Shown here: positions 15,740 through 40,786 of the stretch, in pieces
Layout: each line of letters begins with the position of its first letter
Numbering within the stretch: the first letter of the stretch is position 1
Sequence record: PQ476011.1
Reading direction: 5' to 3' (one strand)
DNA from: Escherichia phage PhiNW-E1
DNA length: 45,197 nt
Notes under the pieces: model-generated
Seen by the model: only the letters and a program-made list of their open reading frames with translations
What the model was told of the DNA's origin: nothing
Database searches by the model: none
Program-made: the position numbers and the translations under genes

Positions 15740-17728
15740 ATGGCTATTATTCAGAATGTACCGTGTCCTGCCTGTCAAAAGAATGGACACGATAAATCCG
15801 GCAATCATCTCATGATATTTGATGATGGTGCTGGCTATTGTAACCGTGGTCATTTCCACGATAACGGCAAGCCTTACTATCATAAGCCAGATGGTGGCAT
15901 CGAGATCACCGAGTTGCCTATTACTGGCAATATCAAATATACACCTTCTCAATTCAAAGAGATGGAGAAGGAAGGGAAGATAAGCGACCCTAAGTTACGC
16001 GCCATCGCACTTGGTGGCATGCGTATGAAAGACCGATGGGAGGTCATGAATGAGCAAGAAAGGGCAGACCAAGAAGCAGAGTGGAAACTTGATGTTGAAT
16101 GGTTCCTCACGCTTAAGCGTAAGAATCTTGTTTCCCGACACATTCGCGGCGACATTTGCGCATTGTATGATGTACGTGTCGGACACGATGAAGATGGTAG
16201 AGTCTCACGGCATTACTATCCACGCTTCGAGAAAGGTGAGCTAGTAGGCGCTAAGTGTCGCACATTACCTAAAGACTTTAAGTTTGGTCATTTAGGTAAA
16301 CTCTTTGGTATGCAAGATCTTTTCGGTATGAATACCTTGTCTCACGTGTTAGACAAGGGAAGACGAAAGGATTGCTTGCTTATTGTGGGCGGCGAACTGG
16401 ATGCACTAGCAGCACAGCAAATGCTCCTTGATTCTGCCAAGGGTACTAAGTGGGAAGGCCAGCCTTACCATGTATGGTCTGTCAATAAAGGTGAGTCTTG
16501 CCTTGAAGAGATAGTACAGAACCGTGAACACATCGCCCAATTTAAGAAGATTATATGGGGTTTTGATGGCGACGAGGTGGGGCAGAAGCAGAATCAGCAA
16601 GCGGCTCGCCTGTTTCCTGGCAAATCCTATATCCTTGAATACCCTTCTGGTTGCAAAGATGCTAACAAGGCATTGATGGCTGGCAAGGCTAAAGAGTTTG
16701 TTGATGCTTGGTTTAATGCCAAGTCATCTGATGAAGTCTTTGGTAGCCAGATTAAATCTATCGCATCTCAAAGGGATAAGCTCAAGGCTGCACGTCCAGA
16801 GCAAGGGTTATCATGGCCTTGGCCTAAGCTGAACAAGGTAACGCTAGGTATTCGTAAGAACCAGCTTATCATTGTAGGTGCAGGCTCTGGTGTAGGTAAG
16901 ACTGAGTTCCTTCGCGAAGTGGTTAAGCACCTCATTGAAGAGCACGGTGAATCTGTAGGCATCATTTCTACAGAAGACCCGATGGTCAAGGTGTCCCGTG
17001 CTTTTATCGGTAAGTGGATTGATAAGCGTATTGAGTTACCGCCAACCAACGACCCGAAAGAAGACGGATACCGTGAGGTGTTCGACTACACCGAGGAAGA
17101 AGCTAACGCTGCCATTGATTATGTGGCTGATACAGGAAAGCTATTTGTGGCTGACCTAGAGGGTGACTATTCGATGGAGAAGGTAGAGCAAACTTGCCTA
17201 GAGTTTGAGGCTATGGGTATTTCTAATATCATCATTGATAACTTAACGGGGATTAAATTAGATGAGCGTGCTTTTGGTGGGAAGGTTGGTGCACTTGATG
17301 AATGCGTCAAACGAATTGGTACTATCAAAGACCGACATGCGGTTACGATTTTCCTTGTCTCTCACCTTACACGTCCTCCGGCAAACCGTACCCAACACGA
17401 AGAAGGTGGCGAAGTTATCCTTTCTGACTTCCGAGGCTCAGGCGCTATCGGATTCTGGGCATCTTACGCCTTGGGGATTGAGCGTAATACAAGAGCTGAA
17501 ACGCTTGATGAAAGGACTACCACGTACATCTCTTGTGTCAAAGACCGCGACCAAGGTATCTACACAGGAACCAAAGTCATGCTCAAGGGTGACATTCAGA
17601 CCGGACGCTTGAGAGAACCACAAGCTAGAACAAGGTCGTTTGATACAGGCGAAGCAAGGCAACAAGAAGTACCGGATTTACCGGACACTATAGAAGAGAC
17701 AACATTTGACGATGAACAGGAGTTTTAA
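15740..17728 (+). CDS. DNA primase/helicase (T7 gp4 family)
   Basis: 662 aa; N-terminal Cys zinc motif CPACQKNGHD...CNRGH; Walker A GAGSGVGKT; acidic C-terminal tail ending DDEQEF. Confidence 0.9.
   Translation: MAIIQNVPCPACQKNGHDKSGNHLMIFDDGAGYCNRGHFHDNGKPYYHKPDGGIEITELPITGNIKYTPSQFKEMEKEGKISDPKLRAIALGGMRMKDRWEVMNEQERADQEAEWKLDVEWFLTLKRKNLVSRHIRGDICALYDVRVGHDEDGRVSRHYYPRFEKGELVGAKCRTLPKDFKFGHLGKLFGMQDLFGMNTLSHVLDKGRRKDCLLIVGGELDALAAQQMLLDSAKGTKWEGQPYHVWSVNKGESCLEEIVQNREHIAQFKKIIWGFDGDEVGQKQNQQAARLFPGKSYILEYPSGCKDANKALMAGKAKEFVDAWFNAKSSDEVFGSQIKSIASQRDKLKAARPEQGLSWPWPKLNKVTLGIRKNQLIIVGAGSGVGKTEFLREVVKHLIEEHGESVGIISTEDPMVKVSRAFIGKWIDKRIELPPTNDPKEDGYREVFDYTEEEANAAIDYVADTGKLFVADLEGDYSMEKVEQTCLEFEAMGISNIIIDNLTGIKLDERAFGGKVGALDECVKRIGTIKDRHAVTIFLVSHLTRPPANRTQHEEGGEVILSDFRGSGAIGFWASYALGIERNTRAETLDERTTTYISCVKDRDQGIYTGTKVMLKGDIQTGRLREPQARTRSFDTGEARQQEVPDLPDTIEETTFDDEQEF
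17676..17698 (+). promoter_or_regulatory. Phage RNAP promoter embedded in the 3' end of the primase/helicase gene
   Basis: GATTTACCGGACACTATAGAAGAG; +1 G at 17693. Confidence 0.65.
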
Positions 17729-24391: not shown

Positions 24392-24414
24392 ATTTACTGG
24401 ACACTATAGAAGAG
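24392..24414 (+). promoter_or_regulatory. Phage RNAP promoter
   Basis: TATTTACTGGACACTATAGAAGAG; +1 G at 24409. Confidence 0.7.
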
Positions 24415-24836: not shown

Positions 24837-24895
24837 TAATAGCAGGTGTAGCCTCTGTTAGTCCTAGTTGACTATCACGCTCACCTTATCTAATG

Positions 24896-24927
24896 CCCTG
24901 TCTGCCTTAGTGTAGGCAGGGTCTTTT
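24896..24927 (+). terminator. Hairpin plus U-tract terminator, paralog of the post-capsid terminator
   Basis: CCCTGTCT-GCCTTAGTGT-AGGCAGGG then TCTTTTG; closely similar in sequence to 33931-33964. Confidence 0.55.
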
Positions 24928-26567: not shown

Positions 26568-27567
26568 GCTTCGCAGCTTGTACAAAGACTCCGAGGTACT
26601 TGATGCAATCGAGCAAGCTACCGACGAGAAAGGTAATGTTAACTACAACGAGATGGCACGGGTATTATCGTGTCACCCTATGGGTAAGAAGATTACCCGC
26701 CAGTTGGCTCGATACTGGCATGGTCAATTCAAGAAGACCAAGAAGAATGGTGATTACTACCAGACTCTTCTGCAAGAGGATAAGCGTATCAAAGAAGAGC
26801 GTAAGCTCAGGACTCCTGACCGCTACGAGGATTTGGCTATTGTACCACTGCCTGACTCGCCTCATCGAAGTGTACTGGTAATCCCTGACACCCATGCACC
26901 TTACGAGCACCCAGATACCTTAGAGTTTCTGGCAGCGGTGGCAGCATGTTACCGTCCAGACACTGTAGTTCATCTGGGGGATGAGGCAGATAAACATGCC
27001 TTATCGTTCCACGATTCAGACCCCAATCTGGATAGTGCTGGCATGGAATTAGAGAAGGCTCGTGTCTTCATGCACAAGTTGCACAAGATGTTTCCTGTGA
27101 TGCGCCTGTGTCATTCTAATCACGGCTCTATGCACTTCCGTAAGGCAAGCGCCAAGGGTATTCCAGTGCAATATCTTCGTACATACCGTGAAGTCTTCTT
27201 CCCAAATGGAGGTGGCGACCAGTGGGATTGGCAACATACACACGTACTTGAGTTGCCGAATGGTGAACAGGTAGCATTCAAGCATCAACCTGCTGGCTCT
27301 GTCTTAGCAGATGCAGCGCATGAGCGTATGAACCTTGTGTGTGGTCACTTGCATGGTAAGATGTCTGTGGAGTACGCACGTAATACACATGAACAGTATT
27401 GGGCTGTGCAGGGCGGCTGTTTGATTGATGAGTCATCTCGTGCATTTGCCTATGGTCGTGAGTCCAAATACAAGCCAGCATTAGGTTGTGTGGTTATTCT
27501 GGAGGGTGTGCCGCACATTGTCCCGATGCAGACCAATAGTGACAATCGCTGGATTGGTAAGATTTAG
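26533..27567 (+). CDS. Calcineurin-like metallophosphoesterase (start uncertain: ATG 26533 or TTG 26560)
   Basis: Motifs PDTHAP, HLGDEAD, SNHG, CGHLHG in canonical order. Confidence 0.65.
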   Translation: MQERRRRLKLGKLRSLYKDSEVLDAIEQATDEKGNVNYNEMARVLSCHPMGKKITRQLARYWHGQFKKTKKNGDYYQTLLQEDKRIKEERKLRTPDRYEDLAIVPLPDSPHRSVLVIPDTHAPYEHPDTLEFLAAVAACYRPDTVVHLGDEADKHALSFHDSDPNLDSAGMELEKARVFMHKLHKMFPVMRLCHSNHGSMHFRKASAKGIPVQYLRTYREVFFPNGGGDQWDWQHTHVLELPNGEQVAFKHQPAGSVLADAAHERMNLVCGHLHGKMSVEYARNTHEQYWAVQGGCLIDESSRAFAYGRESKYKPALGCVVILEGVPHIVPMQTNSDNRWIGKI

Positions 27568-27584
27568 TTGACACTATAGAACAA
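27562..27584 (+). promoter_or_regulatory. Phage RNAP promoter (SP6-like variant)
   Basis: GATTTAGTTGACACTATAGAACAA; +1 G at 27579. Confidence 0.6.
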
Positions 27585-27635: not shown

Positions 27636-28106
27636 ATGTCAAAGATTTATATTGGCGAATACGTCGTACGCCGTGCAGCTTACCGAGATGCCTTCTGGAA
27701 TAAACTGTGTGAAAGCCTAGGCAAGAAACCAGATGGGGTATTCAAAGTATCCCGTGCAGAACCTAATTATAACTCTATTATGTTAGAAGGTGTTGAGAAG
27801 CGCGAATGGTATGCACCTTACTTCAAGGTTGTTGACTCATTGCAAGATGAAGATCCTAGCACGTTGGACAACAATATGGTTACTAAGCCTAAGCACTATG
27901 AGTTCTTCGATGGGGTAGAGGCAATCACTATCATTGCTCGTAGTATGACCGAGAAGCAATTTGCTGGATATTGCATGGGTAATGCTTTGAAGTATCGTCT
28001 GCGTGCAGGGAAGAAATTCAACACGGAAGAAGATCTGAAGAAAGCAGACTACTACAAAGAGCTATTCCAGAAGCATCGTCACGAATGTATTGATGAGGAT
28101 ATTTAA
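27636..28106 (+). CDS. Hypothetical protein
   Basis: 156 aa from ATG 27636 (RBS GGAGGA 27623-27628). Confidence 0.55.
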   Translation: MSKIYIGEYVVRRAAYRDAFWNKLCESLGKKPDGVFKVSRAEPNYNSIMLEGVEKREWYAPYFKVVDSLQDEDPSTLDNNMVTKPKHYEFFDGVEAITIIARSMTEKQFAGYCMGNALKYRLRAGKKFNTEEDLKKADYYKELFQKHRHECIDEDI

Positions 28107-28107
28107 T

Positions 28108-28224
28108 ATGACTTGTCCTAATTGTGGAAGTGAAGAAACAGAACATGTAGTTATGTCAGATACTTATCATTTCTACTTCTGTCATAGCTGCGACACCACC
28201 ATTGAAGAGGAAGAAGCTGTATGA
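28108..28224 (+). CDS. Small zinc-ribbon protein (38 aa)
   Basis: Hand-translated; CPNCGS...CHSCDT; stop overlaps ligase start (ATGA). Confidence 0.4.
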   Translation: MTCPNCGSEETEHVVMSDTYHFYFCHSCDTTIEEEEAV

Positions 28225-29168
28225 ATATATTCCAATTCCTAGGTCTTCCAGAAGACCACCGCAATCACCCATTCATGCTGGTGAAACATCGCGGTGAAGT
28301 ACCTGAGAAGAAATTAACTTTTCCATGTTATGCACAGGTAAAACGAGATGGTATATTTAGTGCTGTGGTTGTTCGCAACGATGGTGTCGTTGGTATCTTT
28401 GGACGCACTGGAAAGAAACTGGCTAACACGGAAACCTTGGAAGAATCTTATTCAGCTTTCCCTACTGGCATTTATCTCGGTGAGTTGCAATCTATGGCTA
28501 TTGATGTCTACCTTGAAGCACTTTCTGGAGTAGTTAACCCTAGCCGCACTGAGCCACTAGATTTCATAGGCCAGCAGATTAAAGACAACCTGTATATTGA
28601 CTTCTTCGATATGTTAACTATTAAGGTATTCCATGATGGATTCACTGATGTTTCTTATCTCAAACGTTACGATGCTTTACATCGTCGCATCGGCGCTCAT
28701 CTTAGCGGGTACAACGCTATCCTTCCTATTACTCCTTGCCATAATGAGCGAGAAGTTGAAGCGTTTGCGCAAGAGCAAATAGACGCAGGCCGAGAGGGTG
28801 CTGTGTTTAAACTGGACTGTGATTATGAAGCAGGCCACAAAGGTTATCGTCAGACTAAAGAAGTCCGTAAGGTAACTTATGACCTTACTTGTATTGGCTT
28901 TGAAGAAGGCAAAGGTAAGTACAAAGGTAAGGTAGCTAACCTCATTTTCAAATGGAAAGGGGGCAAGACAATCAAAGCTATGTTAGGTAAAGGGTGGACT
29001 CATGCAGATGCAGAACAGATGTTCCACGATATTAAACATGGTGGACGATTGAATGTCATTGGTAAAATCTTTGAAGTAAAAGGTCTTCAGGATTCAAGCA
29101 AGGGCAACATTCGTCTGCCCAAAGCGGGAGAATTAAGACATGACAAAGATGAACCAGATTTCTTTTGA
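28221..29168 (+). CDS. ATP-dependent DNA ligase
   Basis: 315 aa; adenylation motif KRDG (AQVKRDGIFSAVV). Confidence 0.8.
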   Translation: MNIFQFLGLPEDHRNHPFMLVKHRGEVPEKKLTFPCYAQVKRDGIFSAVVVRNDGVVGIFGRTGKKLANTETLEESYSAFPTGIYLGELQSMAIDVYLEALSGVVNPSRTEPLDFIGQQIKDNLYIDFFDMLTIKVFHDGFTDVSYLKRYDALHRRIGAHLSGYNAILPITPCHNEREVEAFAQEQIDAGREGAVFKLDCDYEAGHKGYRQTKEVRKVTYDLTCIGFEEGKGKYKGKVANLIFKWKGGKTIKAMLGKGWTHADAEQMFHDIKHGGRLNVIGKIFEVKGLQDSSKGNIRLPKAGELRHDKDEPDFF

Positions 29169-29355
29169 TAGCATGAAGGCAACTCGTGCAGTTGAGGTAG
29201 CAGAAGCTATCTTTGAAACTTTATCCTGTGGCATGGAATTGCCGTATACTTTACTGGCTGATGCAGAAGAGCTTGGTCTTTCTGTAGAAGCTATCCAAGA
29301 GAAGGTTGAAGAACTCTATGGTACAGACGAAGAAGAAACCGACGATTTCATTTGA
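29140..29355 (+). CDS. Small highly acidic protein (start uncertain)
   Basis: 71 aa, Asp/Glu-rich; overlaps the ligase 3' end by 29 nt. Confidence 0.4.
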   Translation: MTKMNQISFDSMKATRAVEVAEAIFETLSCGMELPYTLLADAEELGLSVEAIQEKVEELYGTDEEETDDFI

Positions 29356-29365
29356 GGGTATGGAG

Positions 29366-29488
29366 ATGCTTGAGATGATTCTCAAGCCTTCTTCTCCGAA
29401 GGTGACTAAGACTCACGAAGAATTAATCGTAGATGAAGTTAAGCGTTACATAATGGATTGTGTCAGAGCACAACTGGTGGTCCAATGA
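29366..29488 (+). CDS. Small hypothetical protein
   Basis: About 40 aa; in-frame part of ORF-track entry 29306-29488; weak RBS. Confidence 0.25.
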   Translation: MLEMILKPSSPKVTKTHEELIVDEVKRYIMDCVRAQLVVQ

Positions 29489-29946
29489 TACGTCCAGCTT
29501 CATTCCTAGATATTCCTGAGATTATAAACCTTGGGAATAAGTATGTGGAAGAGGAAGTCAAGGTTGTAGTCCATCACTCAGCCTCATGGAGTGCAGAACA
29601 AAGTGCACATAACCTTTGTGCATCTCTTAGTAGAGAAGATTTATTCCTATGGGTTGCTGTAGATGAAGGGCGGATTGTAGGGTTCCTGTGGGCTGGCTAT
29701 CACGAGTTGGCCCCTTGGACACCTGTAATGGTTGCCTCTGACATTCTCTTTTATATTATACCAGAGAAGCGAGGAACCCTACTTGGTATGCGTCTCATCA
29801 AAGCCCTAAAGCAATGGGCTAGTGATAATGAATGCTCTGAGGTTCGCCTGTCTATCGCCTCTGGTATTAATGAAGAACGTGTCGGACGTATGTATAAGCG
29901 ACTTGGCTTTGAACCGTTTGGCACTGTGTACAACCTGAAGTTCTAA
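29485..29946 (+). CDS. GNAT-family N-acetyltransferase
   Basis: 153 aa from ATG 29485; acetyl-CoA-binding-like core RGTLLGMRLIKAL and C-terminal RLGFEP. Confidence 0.6.
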   Translation: MIRPASFLDIPEIINLGNKYVEEEVKVVVHHSASWSAEQSAHNLCASLSREDLFLWVAVDEGRIVGFLWAGYHELAPWTPVMVASDILFYIIPEKRGTLLGMRLIKALKQWASDNECSEVRLSIASGINEERVGRMYKRLGFEPFGTVYNLKF

Positions 29947-29955
29947 GGAGATAAC

Positions 29956-30165
29956 ATGGGTGTTGTAAAGAAAGCATTTAAGGCTATCGGTCTTGCTCAA
30001 GATGCACCACGTATTGAAGCCAAAGTCCCAGCACAGCAGCTTGAGCGTAAGCCTGAGACTGAAGCTGAAGATATTCAAATTGGTGCAGGTGGTGATGATG
30101 CGACTGCATCTGCAAAAGGTAAGCGCGGCCTTGTCCGTCCGGTAGCTTCTAGCTTGAAGGTGTAA
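29956..30165 (+). CDS. Small virion-associated protein (T7 gp6.7-like composition)
   Basis: 69 aa; RBS AAGGAGA; directly upstream of portal. Confidence 0.45.
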   Translation: MGVVKKAFKAIGLAQDAPRIEAKVPAQQLERKPETEAEDIQIGAGGDDATASAKGKRGLVRPVASSLKV

Positions 30166-30166
30166 T

Positions 30167-31717
30167 ATGAAACAGAGCACAGATTTGGAGTATGGAGGTA
30201 AGCGGTCTAAGATACCTAAGCTATGGGAGAAGTTCTCCACTAAACGTAGCTCTTTCCTTGATAGGGCGAAGCATTACTCCAAATTAACCTTGCCCTATCT
30301 GATGAATGACAAAGGTGATAACGAGACTTCGCAGAATGGATGGCAAGGTGTAGGTGCTCAGGCAACTAATCATCTAGCCAACAAGCTAGCGCAAGTACTA
30401 TTCCCTGCACAGCGTTCCTTCTTCCGTGTAGACTTAACTGCACAAGGTGAGAAGGTTCTTAATCAGCGTGGCCTGAAGAAGACAGAGCTAGCTACCATCT
30501 TCGCTCAAGTGGAAACACGGGCAATGAAAGAGTTAGAGCAACGTCAATTCCGGCCTGCTGTAGTGGAAGCATTCAAGCATCTTATTGTTGCTGGTAGCTG
30601 TATGCTATACAAGCCGAGCAAAGGTGCAATCAGTGCTATCCCAATGCATCACTATGTAGTTAACCGTGATACCAATGGCGACCTGTTAGACATTATCTTA
30701 CTGCAAGAGAAAGCCTTACGCACCTTTGACCCAGCTACACGTGCTGTAGTAGAGGTTGGCCTGAAAGGTAAGAAGTGCAAGGAGGATGACAGCGTTAAGC
30801 TGTACACACATGCTAAGTATCTTGGTGATGGATTTTGGGAACTCAAGCAATCTGCTGATGATATCCCTGTGGGTAAGGTGAGTAAAATCAAATCAGAAAA
30901 GCTACCTTTCATCCCATTAACTTGGAAGCGAAGCTATGGTGAGGATTGGGGTCGCCCTCTTGCAGAGGATTACTCCGGTGATTTATTCGTTATCCAATTC
31001 TTATCTGAAGCAGTTGCCCGTGGTGCTGCACTGATGGCAGACATTAAGTACCTGATTCGTCCGGGTGCTCAGACTGATGTTGACCACTTTGTTAACTCTG
31101 GCACTGGTGAGGTTGTCACTGGTGTAGAAGAAGATATCCATATTGTACAGTTAGGTAAGTATGCAGACCTCACACCTATTAGCGCGGTTCTAGAGGTATA
31201 CACTCGCCGTATCGGTGTTGTCTTCATGATGGAGACAATGACACGCCGTGACGCCGAACGTGTTACTGCTGTAGAAATCCAGCGAGATGCGTTAGAGATT
31301 GAGCAGAACATGGGTGGGGTATACTCCCTCTTTGCTACTACTATGCAATCGCCAGTAGCGATGTGGGGTCTGCTGGAGGCAGGGGAGTCCTTCACTAGTG
31401 ACTTAGTGGACCCTGTGATTATCACAGGTATTGAAGCTTTAGGACGCATGGCTGAGTTGGATAAACTGGCTAACTTTGCTCAGTATATGTCACTGCCATT
31501 ACAATGGCCTGAGCCTGTCCTAGCTGCTGTGAAATGGCCTGACTATATGGATTGGGTGCGTGGTCAAATCTCTGCTGAACTGCCGTTCCTTAAATCAGCT
31601 GAAGAGATGGCACAAGAACAGGAAGCACAGATGCAAGCACAGCAAGCACAGATGCTTGAAGAAGGTGTGGCTAAGGCCGTGCCGGGTGTAATTCAACAAG
31701 AACTTAAGGAGGCGTAA
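30167..31717 (+). CDS. Portal (head-tail connector) protein
   Basis: 516 aa; position upstream of scaffold and capsid; size typical of T7 gp8 family. Confidence 0.8.
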   Translation: MKQSTDLEYGGKRSKIPKLWEKFSTKRSSFLDRAKHYSKLTLPYLMNDKGDNETSQNGWQGVGAQATNHLANKLAQVLFPAQRSFFRVDLTAQGEKVLNQRGLKKTELATIFAQVETRAMKELEQRQFRPAVVEAFKHLIVAGSCMLYKPSKGAISAIPMHHYVVNRDTNGDLLDIILLQEKALRTFDPATRAVVEVGLKGKKCKEDDSVKLYTHAKYLGDGFWELKQSADDIPVGKVSKIKSEKLPFIPLTWKRSYGEDWGRPLAEDYSGDLFVIQFLSEAVARGAALMADIKYLIRPGAQTDVDHFVNSGTGEVVTGVEEDIHIVQLGKYADLTPISAVLEVYTRRIGVVFMMETMTRRDAERVTAVEIQRDALEIEQNMGGVYSLFATTMQSPVAMWGLLEAGESFTSDLVDPVIITGIEALGRMAELDKLANFAQYMSLPLQWPEPVLAAVKWPDYMDWVRGQISAELPFLKSAEEMAQEQEAQMQAQQAQMLEEGVAKAVPGVIQQELKEA

Positions 31718-32642: not shown

Positions 32643-32665
32643 ATTTACTGGACACTATAGAAGGG
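32643..32665 (+). promoter_or_regulatory. Phage RNAP promoter upstream of capsid gene
   Basis: TATTTACTGGACACTATAGAAGGG; +1 G at 32660. Confidence 0.7.
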
Positions 32666-33922: not shown

Positions 33923-33930
33923 CACCTATG

Positions 33931-33964
33931 CCCTATCTACCTTGCGTAGGTAGGGTTCTTTTTG
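33931..33964 (+). terminator. Post-capsid hairpin plus U-tract terminator (T-phi-like position)
   Basis: CCCTATCTAC-CTTGC-GTAGGTAGGG then TTCTTTTTG. Confidence 0.6.
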
Positions 33965-37116: not shown

Positions 37117-37838
37117 TGGCTATAGGTTCAGCCGTTATGGCTGGTATGTCTTCTATTGGTAGCATGTTTGCAGGCAGTGGTGCAGCAGCCGCTGCTGGAG
37201 GTGCTGCCGCAGGTGGCGGAGGTTTGCTAGGTTCACTAGGTGGATTCCTAAGTGGCTCTACTGCTGGTTTCTCTAATGCTGGCCTTCTTGGTGCTGGCCT
37301 TCAAGGGTTAGGCTTGATTGGTGATCTATTTGGTGGAAGTGATGAAGCCAAGGCGATGAAGAAAGCACAAGAAGAGCAATGGCGGCAGCAGCTTATTGCT
37401 ACACAAGAGGCGTACAAGACAGTGGCAGACGCAGAACGTTCTGCTGCTAAACAATATCATGCAGATGCAATCAGTAATCAGGCTTCACTGCTACAGCAGC
37501 GAGCACAGGTTGCATTACTTGCTGGGGCTACTGGTACTGGTGGTAATTCTGTGTCCTCTATGCTTAATGACTTAGCAGCAGATGGCGGCAGGAACCAGAG
37601 TACTATCATTGATAACTATGAGAATCAGAAGATTAATTTCACCAACCAGCTTAAGTCTATCCAACGTGGTGGTCAGATGCAGATGCGTGAGTTTAAGAAG
37701 CCTTCTGCTAGGAATACCTTGGTTAAAGGTATTCCAAGTCTGGCATCTGCCTATGTAACTGGTAGTAAGTCTGGCAAGGCATTGGGTAAAGCCTTAACTG
37801 ATTCTCGCACATATTCATCTGGAACAAGAGGTATTTAA
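37116..37838 (+). CDS. Internal virion protein, Gly/Ala-rich
   Basis: 240 aa; ATG overlaps tail-B stop; N-terminal Gly/Ala-rich low complexity. Confidence 0.65.
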   Translation: MAIGSAVMAGMSSIGSMFAGSGAAAAAGGAAAGGGGLLGSLGGFLSGSTAGFSNAGLLGAGLQGLGLIGDLFGGSDEAKAMKKAQEEQWRQQLIATQEAYKTVADAERSAAKQYHADAISNQASLLQQRAQVALLAGATGTGGNSVSSMLNDLAADGGRNQSTIIDNYENQKINFTNQLKSIQRGGQMQMREFKKPSARNTLVKGIPSLASAYVTGSKSGKALGKALTDSRTYSSGTRGI

Positions 37839-40786
37839 TGGCAATTGAGCGACAAGCAGTACAAGGTCTGCCACAAGTGCAGGCCACTTCTCCTAATGTC
37901 ATGACCTTTGCACCTCAACAAGTGGGAGGTGTGGAGGCTGGCGTGGCTTCTACCTCCGGTAGTAGATTTATCGAAGACCTTATTCGTGCAGCAAGCAGCG
38001 TGGCTGATGTTACCACTGGTATCCTTAATCAGAAGATTGAGGAAGATAAGGTTGTTCAAATGGAACGGGCATATAACGGATTAATGCCTTCTGAGGATGC
38101 AACTCGTGGTGGCGCTCGTGCTAACATGCTTGTCAAAGCTCAACTGCTAGCTAATGATGAAGCAGCACGAATGAAAGACATGGCTACTCGTTTCCAAGGG
38201 ACGGATGACGAGTGGACACAACTTACGGTTGACTCTCGTAATGAGATGCAGAATAAGCTGTTCCGGCAATACCCTGAGTTGCAAGGTGACAAAGATACTA
38301 TGCGTATGGTCACTAATGTCTTCCAAGAACAGCAGCCTCAGATTTGGGCTACACGAACCCAGCATAAACTTGACCGTGAACAAGCCGACCGTGAGGATAC
38401 CTTTGACGGGCGAGTGGCTTCTACTTGGGACTCTAATATTGACCCTGAAGCCTCTGGCTATGCTTTACAGGAACGAATCCGCGAAGGTCTGACTCAAGGA
38501 TTACTACCTGAACAGATGCACAAGAAGTTAGTCCAGCGGGCAATTTCACTTGCACAAGGTGGTGATGTTAGCATGGCTGAAGCCCTGAAGTATGTGAAGG
38601 ACGATAAGGGCGTTTCTGTTTATGCTAAGAATCCACAGCTTATCACAGCCATCACTAGTGGTAATGCAGTTTGGGCTAGGAATAATGTAGCTGATGTAAC
38701 TCGTATGTCTTTCGAAGTTAAAGAATCATACCTTGCAGGTGATTTAACTGATGAAGAATTGTTGGAACGAGCACAGCACATTAATAATCTGACAGGTAAC
38801 TATGTCTTCTCTAATCCAGAGCTAGAGGCACTGATGCGCAAACGGGCTAAGCAAAATGCAGAGCTAGGTGCAATGCAGGATATGCGACGTGAGCTTTACT
38901 CCGACCGCCTGACTGGCTTCCAAGGTAAGACTGATAAAGAGAAGAAGGCTTACATTGATGTTATCAAACAGGATAGCCAACTTTATGCAGACCAGCAAAT
39001 CAAACAACGTGGCTTGGATCCTTACAGTCAAGAGGCTGAAGCTATTCGTGGTGCAGTGGAAGTGCAGCGTCTGCAATTCATGAACTCCAAAGGCTTAGTG
39101 GATGACACCTTTGAGTCTCGTATCAAAGCCATGGAATCTATGCTATCGCCTGAGCACTTTGCCAAGGGCGAACCACAGGAGTTGATGACTATTCGCCAGT
39201 TGTGGGAACAGTTGCCAGAAGAGAGCCGAGGTGTCTTTGGTGACACGGTTAATGGCTACATGGATAACTACAACACTGCACTACAAATGGGAGAGACACC
39301 TTTGCAGGCTGCAAGGTTTGCGCGTGAAGCACAGCAGAAATTCTCTCGTACTGAGAAGGAAACCAAGAAGTTCAACTCAGCTATTGGAGATGCACTGGAT
39401 GAGGTATCTGGTGCTGGCTGGTTTGATGGTAAAACCGAAGTGTCAGACTTAGGTAAAGCTATTGCGGAAGAAGAGTTACGAGCTAAGGCCAATATGTTGT
39501 GGTCTAGCGGTATGCGTAACATGGATTCTATCAAGAAGGCTTTAATTACTTGGGGCAATAAACGCTACACTCAATCAGAGGATGCAAAGACTTCCGGTGG
39601 CTATTTCATTAAAGGTGATTACACTTCTGCATCTGATATGCTTATGTCAGTTGGGAAAGGTGTAAACCCTACCGATGCCCCTCTGGCGCTTGGTAGGTAT
39701 GTAGAAACACAGATGCCAGAATTGAAGAAGGAGCTTCAAGAGTGGGAAACTAAGGATGATGTGTACATTGATTACAATGAACAGAAAGGAACTTTTGTGA
39801 TTCGTGCTGGTGCAGCAGGTCGCCCTCTTTCTGGAGTAATCCCTGTAACTTCTTTGGATACCACTTCACTACTGGATTCTGCCTATCAGAAGAAAGTAGA
39901 AGAACGAGATAAAGGCGAGTATGTTCACCCGTATCGTACAGATATTGGTGCACAAGAGCCTATGCCAGCTAAACCAACTGCCAAAGATATTGGTAAATTT
40001 GGACTAGCTAACTTCCTCATGTCTTCTGCTTTTGCTTCTGGTGAGAATCTACCTTCTAACTTCGAGATTAACTATCGAGGTAATATGCAACAATTCTATG
40101 ACAAGCTAGCTATGGATGAGAATAAAGATAAAGTTGGCTTTAATAAGGCAACTGGAACCTTTACTCCATATAAAGACGCTCACGGTGAGTCTATCGGTTA
40201 CGGTCATTTCTTAACGGAAGAAGAGAAGCGAAACGGGTATATTAAGATTGGCGATGAACTAGTTCCCTATCGAGGGTCTATGTCTCAGCTTACAGAGAGT
40301 AAGGCTCGCGCTCTTATGGAGCAAGATGCTAAGAAGCATGTGCCACCTACTCGTGATTGGAAGATTCCATTCGACCAAATGCATCCGGCACAGCAACGTG
40401 GCTTGATGGATTTAACCTACAATTTAGGTAAAGGTGGAATCCAGAACTCACCGCGTGCTCTTGCTGCATTCAAGGCAGGTAAGCTTACAGAAGGCTTTAT
40501 CGAAATGCTGGGTACTGCATCCAGTGAAGGTAAGCGTATTCCTGGCTTATTAAAGCGTAGAGCAGAAGCTTACAACATGGCATCTGCTGGCGGTGTACCT
40601 AAGATTACCGAAGTAGAGACTCGTGAAGATGGGTCTATGTGGGTTAAGTTTGGTGGACCTATGCCAGCAGGTTCTGTCTCTGCGTGGACTCATAAACGTA
40701 TAGGTGCTGATGGCTGGTATCAGGTTTATGATGCTGCACCTACTAAGCTGGCTAAAGGCTCTAAGGTAGGTAAAGTTAAGTTGTAG
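37838..40786 (+). CDS. Internal virion (ejection) protein with C-terminal lysozyme-like domain
   Basis: 982 aa; C-terminal region has YKDAHGESIGYGH and a following helical segment like the T4-lysozyme/GH24 fold. Confidence 0.7.
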   Translation: MAIERQAVQGLPQVQATSPNVMTFAPQQVGGVEAGVASTSGSRFIEDLIRAASSVADVTTGILNQKIEEDKVVQMERAYNGLMPSEDATRGGARANMLVKAQLLANDEAARMKDMATRFQGTDDEWTQLTVDSRNEMQNKLFRQYPELQGDKDTMRMVTNVFQEQQPQIWATRTQHKLDREQADREDTFDGRVASTWDSNIDPEASGYALQERIREGLTQGLLPEQMHKKLVQRAISLAQGGDVSMAEALKYVKDDKGVSVYAKNPQLITAITSGNAVWARNNVADVTRMSFEVKESYLAGDLTDEELLERAQHINNLTGNYVFSNPELEALMRKRAKQNAELGAMQDMRRELYSDRLTGFQGKTDKEKKAYIDVIKQDSQLYADQQIKQRGLDPYSQEAEAIRGAVEVQRLQFMNSKGLVDDTFESRIKAMESMLSPEHFAKGEPQELMTIRQLWEQLPEESRGVFGDTVNGYMDNYNTALQMGETPLQAARFAREAQQKFSRTEKETKKFNSAIGDALDEVSGAGWFDGKTEVSDLGKAIAEEELRAKANMLWSSGMRNMDSIKKALITWGNKRYTQSEDAKTSGGYFIKGDYTSASDMLMSVGKGVNPTDAPLALGRYVETQMPELKKELQEWETKDDVYIDYNEQKGTFVIRAGAAGRPLSGVIPVTSLDTTSLLDSAYQKKVEERDKGEYVHPYRTDIGAQEPMPAKPTAKDIGKFGLANFLMSSAFASGENLPSNFEINYRGNMQQFYDKLAMDENKDKVGFNKATGTFTPYKDAHGESIGYGHFLTEEEKRNGYIKIGDELVPYRGSMSQLTESKARALMEQDAKKHVPPTRDWKIPFDQMHPAQQRGLMDLTYNLGKGGIQNSPRALAAFKAGKLTEGFIEMLGTASSEGKRIPGLLKRRAEAYNMASAGGVPKITEVETREDGSMWVKFGGPMPAGSVSAWTHKRIGADGWYQVYDAAPTKLAKGSKVGKVKL

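Follow-up and report, generated by a model that had tools for sequence, protein, structure and literature searches.

Between the DNA ligase gene and the structural genes of Escherichia phage PhiNW-E1 (sequence record PQ476011.1; the whole stretch of 45,197 nucleotides that was analyzed is referred to here as the window) lies a compact cassette encoding a highly acidic protein of 71 amino acids (positions 29140-29355, plus strand), a second small protein (29318-29488, plus strand), and a GNAT-fold acetyltransferase of 153 amino acids (29485-29946, plus strand). The locus raises the question of what an acetyltransferase and a small acidic protein contribute to the infection cycle at this position. 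The three proteins correspond to gp25, gp26, and gp27 of phage K1-5, and these names are used in what follows. A preliminary description, based on the sequence only, considered the acidic protein and the acetyltransferase as candidate host-takeover or anti-defense genes that are not part of core replication or morphogenesis, and overlooked the gp26 gene between them. The analysis reported here shows that gp25 and gp27 are conserved core genes. Furthermore, gp27 and its distant relatives, the Rac protein of the Pseudomonas phage LUZ19 and T7 gene 7, appear, from profile comparisons and gene order, to be branches of one family that occupies one conserved genomic slot. The earlier statement that the functions of these proteins are experimentally uncharacterized stands, as no literature on the function of gp25 to gp27 of SP6, K1-5, or K1E was found.

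Conservation and synteny of the cassette

Nucleotide comparison revealed that about 5 kb around the cassette are 95-99.5% identical to K1E/K1-5-like coliphages, and the window is a K1E/K1-5-like Vectrevirus (Molineuxvirinae, SP6-like Autographiviridae). K1-5 gp20 to gp30 have the same gene order as the window, and the window and the K1-5 record are related by a circular permutation of about 9.9 kb. The genes for the ligase, gp25, gp26, the GNAT protein, and the T7 gp7.3-like protein that follows it are already annotated in related public records (K1-5 gp24 to gp28). Since gp27 already carries a public annotation as an acetyltransferase, the gene itself is not new; new are its behavior as a core gene, its kinship with Rac and T7 gene 7, and the delimitation of gp25.

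In tblastn searches, 241 phage records contained the GNAT protein, and 153 contained the acidic protein. The order ligase, acidic protein, small protein, GNAT protein, gp7.3-like protein, and portal recurs in five diverse phages, namely, Erwinia phage Era103, Vibrio phage phi-A318, Marinomonas phage CB5A, Pseudomonas phage Nerthus, and Ralstonia phage Reminis. The synteny spans the Molineuxvirinae, the Colwellvirinae, and unclassified relatives that infect very different hosts. In these relatives, the acidic counterparts have net charges of -9 to -13 and belong to phrog_14692, which shows a weak cross-match (4.7e-4) to phrog_5860, the family of gp25. Their proteins share 31-41% (GNAT), 48-57% (ligase), and 41-57% (portal) identity with those of the window, and judging from these values, the rate of evolution is somewhat higher for the GNAT gene than for the large core genes, yet the GNAT gene is kept in all five phages. 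A PADLOC scan of six proteins of the region resulted in zero matches. Anti-defense genes typically have a patchy distribution, and the retention of synteny over unrelated hosts is contrary to this pattern; gp25 and gp27 are therefore conserved core genes, and not variable anti-defense genes. Their placement outside the core in the preliminary description thus has to be revised, and a screening of gp25 and gp27 as anti-defense candidates is probably a poor bet.

Family, fold, and active-site residues of gp27

The identification of gp27 as a GNAT acetyltransferase, made initially from the sequence, is borne out by different approaches. The protein scored 36.7 bits against the Pfam family Acetyltransf_1 (PF00583; cut-off of 20.7 bits), was also above the gathering threshold for Acetyltransf_7 and Acetyltransf_10, and matched phrog_1249, annotated as acetyltransferase, at 1.3e-52, as well as phrog_3810 and phrog_6472. 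Its AlphaFold2 (AF2) model, with a predicted local distance difference test (pLDDT) score of 90.3 and a predicted template modeling (pTM) score of 0.86, shows the order b1-a1-a2-b2-b3-b4-a3-b5-a4-b6 that corresponds to the GNAT topology. A Foldseek search with this model retrieved 718 PDB chains at E <= 1e-3, and the best 50 of these 718 all had the GNAT fold; the TM scores with solved GNATs were between 0.65 and 0.80 at 12-24% identity, and no subfamily was favored. Scores against the NCBIfam equivalogs, including those for AAC(6'), ArsN1, RimI, and MshD, were all far under the respective cut-offs, the best being 24.8 bits for AAC_6p_group_E, which has a cut-off of 140. The best 50 matches of a fold search in BFVD were generic or unnamed viral GNATs, among them a few uncharacterized proteins of Autographiviridae (Cd1, phiAp1, and phiNV3), and contained nothing decisive with respect to T7 gp13, T7 gp7, or Rac.

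Within the beta4-alpha3 segment F89-Y90-I-I-P-E-K-R96-G97, the residues F89, Y90, R96, and G97 are invariant in 37 homologues. The loop after strand beta4 reads R96-G97-T-L-L-G101; in the same homologues, conservation does not extend to the central Gly, and G, A, or S occupies the last position. Based on the conservation of the acetyl-CoA-binding segment, we infer that gp27 is catalytically competent, namely, an active acetyl-CoA-dependent N-acetyltransferase.

Relationship to Rac and T7 gene 7

In Autographiviridae, the gp7.3 homologue and the portal gene are directly preceded by a gene position that is termed here the gene 7 slot. One occupant of this slot has been studied functionally, namely, Rac, the GNAT protein gp28 of phage LUZ19. 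Expression of Rac alone caused cleavage of the linker of the Pseudomonas aeruginosa RNA polymerase (RNAP) alpha subunit and reduced transcription (PMC7552054). Rac was also found to raise protein lysine acetylation, and its effect requires the acetyl-CoA pocket, as the phenotype was lost when the predicted pocket residues Q, Y, V, and R were mutated (PMC7552054). In LUZ19, the gene order is RNAP, gp27 (a small protein), Rac, gp29 (a particle protein with a gp7.3-like C terminus), and portal. Rac and gp27 of the window are both GNAT-fold proteins of about 150 amino acids that are found in the same order of small open reading frame (ORF), GNAT, gp7.3-like protein, and portal, and the beta4-alpha3 acetyl-CoA segment is conserved in both. 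In contrast, they belong to different PHROGs, their hosts differ, and the gene upstream encodes an RNA polymerase in LUZ19 and a ligase in the window. The phiKMV-like layout of LUZ19 also occurs in Rhizobium phage Paso, yet the GNAT protein of Paso belongs to phrog_1249, the family of gp27. In T7-like phages of Pseudomonas, homologues of Rac with 30-35% identity are found where T7 has gene 7, and the genera in which Rac homologues fill the gene 7 slot are Ghunavirus, Warsawvirus, and Bonnellvirus; the order in phage 17A, for example, is exonuclease, 6.5, 6.7, GNAT, 7.3, and portal, and that in Bonnellvirus smaasur is alike.

Profile comparisons also point to a relationship among these proteins. 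Among 38,880 PHROGs, the Rac-family proteins matched their own phrog_3986 and gave clear cross-matches only to phrog_2746, the family of T7 gp7 (best score of 2e-12, for smaasur), and to phrog_1249, the family of gp27 (best score of 2.8e-5); in addition, there were two much weaker cross-matches to unannotated PHROGs. In hhalign comparisons, window-type GNATs aligned with the Rac family at E = 5.3e-8 (probability of 95%, 92 columns), and the Rac family aligned with the T7 gp7 family at E = 2e-5 (probability of 77%, 93 columns), whereas the controls, consisting of reversed and 20 column-shuffled profiles, all had E values of at least 0.03. The diverse Rac and T7 gp7 members used were drawn from GenBank phages, as scans of IMG/VR yielded near-identical sequences only. 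The hhalign alignment places the invariant gp27 segment F89-Y90-I-I-P-E-K-R96-G97 opposite the segment Q-Y-V-L-P-R-Y-R-N of Rac, onto which, according to our own reading of the Rac sequence, the mutated pocket residues would map.

T7 gp7, annotated as "host range" in RefSeq and classified in phrog_2746, occupies the same slot as gp27, directly 5' of gene 7.3 and the portal gene, but it comprises 133 amino acids, has no Pfam family, and has lost the R-G acetyl-CoA loop. In view of this loss, T7 gp7 is probably non-catalytic. At the sequence level, T7 gp7 (positions 1131-1532 of the T7 locus examined) has the appearance of a degenerate relative of Rac-type GNATs, and an intact Rac-like GNAT is present in the gene 7 slot of Pseudomonas T7-like phages (positions 1438-1881 of the locus examined in 17A). 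A functional study of T7 gene 7 was not found in the searchable literature. The kinship of gp27, Rac, and T7 gene 7 offers a testable lead, namely, RNAP alpha cleavage, the acetyl-proteome, and the modification of virion proteins, and this lead covers a gene present in hundreds of phages that are therapeutic candidates, plus T7 gene 7.

The acidic protein gp25

The acidic ORF is present as initially described. It starts with ATG, is preceded by a GGGAGA ribosome-binding site, and overlaps the 3' end of the ligase gene by 29 nucleotides. The 71 residues of gp25 include 18 D/E and 4 K/R, resulting in a net charge of -14, and the protein matches phrog_5860, a family without assigned function, at 4.8e-41. 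According to the AF2 model, helices at residues 11-29, 36-45, and 49-60 (pLDDT > 90) form a three-helix core (residues 11-60) that is followed by a disordered acidic C-terminal tail. The charge is maintained in all of the 32 homologues inspected (net charges of -11 to -16), and 19 of the 32 have F, Y, or W among the last five residues. A profile search against 1.84 billion representative proteins resulted in 15 matches, of which 12 are stand-alone proteins of 62-77 amino acids; the other three are longer proteins that match partially or via repeats, and an informative domain fusion was not among them. Searches of solved structures and folds retrieved only designed helical repeats, weak matches to Clp N-domains, and generic helical bundles. 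gp25 represents a tiny, phage-restricted orphan family of three-helix proteins.

In the preliminary description, gp25 was likened to the small acidic proteins of T7-group phages that inhibit host proteins. Such a relationship was not detected at the level of either sequence or fold: hhalign found no similarity of gp25 to 18 small proteins of T7 and LUZ19 (including Ocr, gp1.2, gp2, gp5.5, gp5.9, and gp6.5), the E values being at least 0.12 for Ocr, gp2, gp5.5, gp5.9, and gp1.2. Ocr (T7 gp0.3), gp5.9, gp2, and gp25 are alike in being small and strongly negative, but gp25 differs in being a three-helix bundle without structural neighbor, in forming part of a middle/late operon, and in being a conserved core gene. 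Another likeness concerns the tail of gp25 (...EEETDDFI), which resembles in composition the tail of the primase-helicase encoded in the window (15740-17728); the latter protein ends with ...ETTFDDEQEF, a sequence that is also acidic and Phe-terminated. The C termini of T7 gp2.5 and gp4 are ...DEDGDF and ...SNDTDF, respectively, and DNA polymerase is the docking partner of such acidic, Phe-terminated tails in T7. Composition and gene position make tail-mediated protein binding in DNA metabolism our preferred guess for the role of gp25. There is no acidic protein at the cassette in LUZ19 and Paso, in which the cassette is located behind the RNA polymerase gene instead of the ligase gene, indicating that the presence of gp25 is tied to the SP6-type ligase context and not to the GNAT.

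Transcription context

On its plus strand, the window has 11 sites that match the SP6-type promoter core, compared to 0.12 expected by chance. The last of these 11 phage promoter-like sites before the cassette is located at 27565-27582 (plus strand; TAGTTGACACTATAGAAC), and the first one after it is at 32646. Strong terminator-like hairpins were found only at 24895-24922 and 33930-33956, and hence none between the promoter-like site at 27565 and position 33930. Given this arrangement of promoters and terminators, which was derived from consensus matches, the cassette is probably co-transcribed with the upstream ligase gene and the downstream portal and scaffold genes.

The two hairpins have nearly identical stems (GCCCTGTCTGCC... 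and GCCCTATCTACC...). The first is just 3' of a promoter-like site at 24395, and the second is about 1.3 kb 3' of the promoter-like site at 32646, where it is probably located behind the major capsid gene, comparable to Tphi of T7.

Proposed role and alternative explanations

The ligase, gp25, gp26, gp27, gp28, and portal genes form a tightly packed and conserved string at the border between the DNA-metabolism and structural modules. In the explanation preferred here, the phage RNA polymerase would transcribe this string from the promoter at 27565, reading through into the head genes. gp27 would be the SP6-group representative of an ancient gene-7-slot family, of which Rac and the degenerate T7 gp7 would be other branches. 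It is probably a protein acetyltransferase that acts on at least one protein of the infected cell around the middle-to-late switch. If Rac is taken as the model, this acetylation would serve to inactivate a process of the host, for example, transcription. gp25, in turn, would bind a protein through its flexible acidic tail, often equipped with an aromatic residue, and this tail may occupy a basic surface of a DNA-metabolism protein of phage or host, namely, a surface that binds DNA or the tail of a single-stranded DNA-binding protein (SSB). As a whole, this explanation, a gene-7-slot acetyltransferase acting at the middle-to-late switch together with a tail-binding gp25, is tentative and falls somewhat short of being probable. 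It retains the host-takeover part of the initial proposal, given that Rac, the sole characterized relative of the GNAT, is a takeover factor, whereas the anti-defense part is not supported by the strict synteny.

Several observations speak against the preferred explanation. The pyrophosphate-binding loop of gp27 is non-canonical, with R-G-x-x-x-G/A instead of R-x-x-G-x-G/A (the canonical GNAT motif after strand beta4 being Q/R-x-x-G-x-G/A), and Y137, at the position of the usual general-acid Tyr, is replaced by Phe in several homologues. A BLASTP comparison of gp27 with Rac gave E = 19, and gp27 has no match to phrog_3986 or phrog_2746. The direct hhalign comparison of the gp27 family with the T7 gp7 family was also not significant (E = 0.015 over 32 columns). 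Because neither of these two comparisons was significant, the gp27 family, Rac, and T7 gp7 are linked transitively at the profile level, with Rac as the bridge. The hhalign match could in part reflect generic similarity within the GNAT superfamily; the near-exclusive PHROG cross-matches and the common slot are in favor of a relationship that is more specific than this. The effect of Rac was reported to be specific to the genus Phikmvvirus, as RNAP alpha stays intact in the case of phage LKA1, which also has a GNAT at this location (PMC7552054), and the Rac target can therefore not be transferred to E. coli phages. As to gp25, its likeness to the tails of SSB or helicase is compositional only, and nothing links it to any partner. 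Finally, the constant neighbors of the GNAT gene are virion genes, and a morphogenetic role fits this at least as well.

Such a role in morphogenesis or infectivity, in which the GNAT acetylates or chaperones small ejected virion proteins (gp28 or internal core proteins), is the alternative that fares best, and we consider it rather unlikely. It would involve either acetylation or a non-catalytic contribution to assembly, and its consequences would concern the infectivity of the particles or the host range, and not the physiology of the host. In Studiervirinae-like phages, Krylovirinae, Bonnellvirus, Molineuxvirinae, and Colwellvirinae, the GNAT gene has only two invariant neighbors, namely, the gp7.3 homologue and the portal gene, and the genes usually overlap or abut, so that the separation of the GNAT from morphogenesis made in the preliminary description is not clear-cut. 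T7 gene 7 is annotated as "host range" in RefSeq and, as its family has lost the R-G motif, implies that a function without catalysis can be enough. A member of phrog_1249 is encoded in Zobellviridae with tail tubular protein B on one side and internal virion protein B on the other. The authors of a study on Cobavirus have proposed that this GNAT is equivalent to T7 gp13 (PMC6775973), and K1-5 has no gene at the gp13 position. On the other hand, Rac is toxic and triggers RNAP alpha cleavage without other phage proteins (PMC7552054), the LUZ19 record marks gp29 and not gp28 (Rac) as a particle protein, there is no significant similarity to T7 gp13, and adjacency is weak evidence in compact phage genomes.

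The proposed equivalence with T7 gp13 (PF11090), annotated as "internal virion protein A / probable scaffold," was assessed in four profile comparisons that covered both GNAT families. None of them was significant, and the equivalence is not supported; for the gp27-type GNAT, hhalign E values were 0.13, 0.062, and 0.0054, with matches confined to the N terminus and probabilities below 7%. The position of T7 gp13 is taken by a phrog_1249 GNAT in Zobellviridae, and an N-terminal "M-x-IRP...D" motif is common to gp13 and the gp27-type GNAT, but the genomic position of gp13 differs from that of gp27 in the window. GNATs of the phrog_1249 type located outside the Autographiviridae amid tail and internal-virion genes were also noted in Lentibacter phage ICBM2 (2489-2953 of the locus examined) and Pseudoalteromonas phage Y3 (2501-2953 of the locus examined).

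In a further reading, the GNAT of the gene 7 slot would be an ancestral and nearly universal Autographiviridae factor that is functionally coupled to the ejected gp7.3. The host shut-off by Rac, the "host range" label of T7 gene 7, and gp27 would then all reflect one previously unrecognized acetylation-based step in the initiation of infection or takeover, with gp25 and gp26 as regulators or adaptors; for instance, gp7.3 or the internal core proteins could be substrates of the GNAT, or the GNAT could enter the cell together with them. This reading appears quite unlikely.

It is improbable that gp27 is a small-molecule acetyltransferase that acts on a polyamine, an aminoglycoside, or an amino-acid analogue, thereby altering the polyamine pool before packaging or detoxifying a metabolite. 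Its best sequence matches in the PDB are indeed polyamine acetyltransferases (DpA, 8a9o, 7e-5; SSAT2) and AAC(6') enzymes, the best NCBIfam matches are ArsN1, AAC(6'), and RimI, and the invariant residues D9, E24, D86, E119, Y20, W69, and W78 would suit a cationic substrate. However, the scores are far under the family cut-offs (e.g., 25 bits as compared to 140-170), the low identity to solved GNATs singles out no subfamily, and the characterized relative Rac increases the acetylation of lysines in proteins (PMC7552054).

The possibility that gp25 and gp27 form an anti-defense pair, with gp25 as a DNA mimic directed against restriction or RecBCD and the GNAT inactivating a defense protein by acetylation, is poorly supported, and we regard it as decidedly improbable. 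Like Ocr and gp5.9, gp25 is extremely acidic, and with AcrVA5 there is a GNAT anti-CRISPR protein that inactivates Cas12a by acetylation. The strict synteny and the maintenance of both genes across phages of unrelated hosts argue against this possibility, as do the non-significant hhalign comparisons of gp25 with the T7 acidic inhibitors, the lack of a fold match, the middle/late instead of early promoter, and the presence of an Ocr-like gene in the early region of K1-5.

A toxin-like inhibitor of translation that acetylates aminoacyl-tRNA (TacT/AtaT type), with gp26 as its modulator, is highly improbable, since, although a small ORF is translationally coupled 5' of the GNAT gene as in GNAT/antitoxin pairs and Rac alone inhibits growth (PMC7552054), Pfam shows neither an RHH nor a DUF1778 signature in gp26, no GNAT-toxin family is among the NCBIfam matches, and the gp26/GNAT pair is always found within the same phage operon.

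Neighboring genes and related public records

The small protein gp26 matches phrog_6507 at 3.5e-27 and has a length of 56 amino acids when translated from the ATG at 29318, or of 42 when translated from the ATG at 29360. The longer form agrees with the K1-5 annotation and aligns with the N terminus of Era103 gp32, which suggests that translation starts at 29318, within the 3' end of the gp25 gene. The stop codon of gp26 overlaps the start codon of the GNAT gene (ATGA). Proteins with weak similarity to gp26 are encoded ahead of the GNAT in phi-A318, Nerthus, CB5A, Reminis, LUZ19 (gp27), and Paso. In Nerthus, there are two unannotated ORFs between the ligase and GNAT genes: the first (2607-2774 of the locus examined) encodes an acidic protein of 55 amino acids with a net charge of -9 (phrog_14692, phrog_5860), and the second (2771-2992) a gp26-like protein of 73 amino acids, the stop codon of which overlaps the GNAT start. 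The gp26 gene of the window has an 8-bp hairpin at its 5' end (29368-29387; GCTTGAGATGATTCTCAAGC), just 3' of the alternative starts at 29360 and 29366. This hairpin could affect the choice of the gp26 start or translational coupling, and it is unlikely to be a terminator as it has no proper U-tract.

The gene following the GNAT encodes a protein of 69 amino acids (K1-5 gp28; 29956-30165, plus strand) that is homologous to T7 gp7.3, a tail-channel and virion assembly protein; it matches phrog_1320, the T7 gp7.3 family, at 1.9e-11 and phrog_9033 at 1.1e-12, and has C-terminal motifs in common with gp7.3. T7 gp7.3 is located at the adaptor-nozzle junction and is ejected during infection (PMC11784390). 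The alternative, suggested by the label "host range and adsorption protein," that gp28 is a homologue of T7 gp6.7 was ruled out, as gp6.7 belongs to phrog_1391 and gp28 to phrog_1320. The portal, or head-tail connector, is encoded by the first large structural gene (30167-31717, plus strand), and its counterparts are annotated as head-tail adaptor or connector in relatives.

Upstream of the cassette, the ATP-dependent DNA ligase (K1-5 gp24; 28221-29168, plus strand) named in the preliminary description was confirmed by matches to Pfam DNA_ligase_A_M and DNA_ligase_OB_2 and is annotated as ligase in relatives. An ORF of 44 codons encoding a CxxC...CxxC zinc ribbon (28090-28224) is wedged between a DUF3310 gene and the ligase gene, overlapping both; some relatives have it annotated as hypothetical, and the K1-5 record lacks it. 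The calcineurin-like metallophosphoesterase that was mentioned together with the cassette is also real (26527/26533-27567, plus strand) and belongs to the DNA-metabolism block outside the cassette. It matches phrog_221 at 1.2e-104, the motifs DxH, GDxxD, NH, and GHxH are visible in the translation, and the Pfam Metallophos match (E = 0.0011) is slightly under the cut-off; a sequence search of the PDB gave zero matches. Its gene comes after that for endonuclease VII in SP6-like phages, phi-A318, and Era103, and since it is found in the endonuclease VII/ligase DNA-metabolism block in all relatives, the protein is probably a DNA-processing enzyme.

Some irregularities in public records were noted. 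Two of the records matched by the 5-kb stretch, OR594181.1 and OR594179.1, have problems. In vB_EcoM_SHAK7704, the ligase-GNAT region is labeled as tail, lysozyme, and internal virion proteins, and the annotation seems to be offset from the sequence, whereas vB_EcoM_SHAK7163 is filed under Studiervirinae/Kayfunavirus despite about 99% identity to K1E-like Vectrevirus. In addition, RefSeq and the UAB_Phi78 paper use the name "acetyl-CoA acetyltransferase" for K1-5 gp41 and gp42 (37756-38343; about 92-96 amino acids); both proteins are far too short for a thiolase, and the name is thus probably a propagated misnomer.

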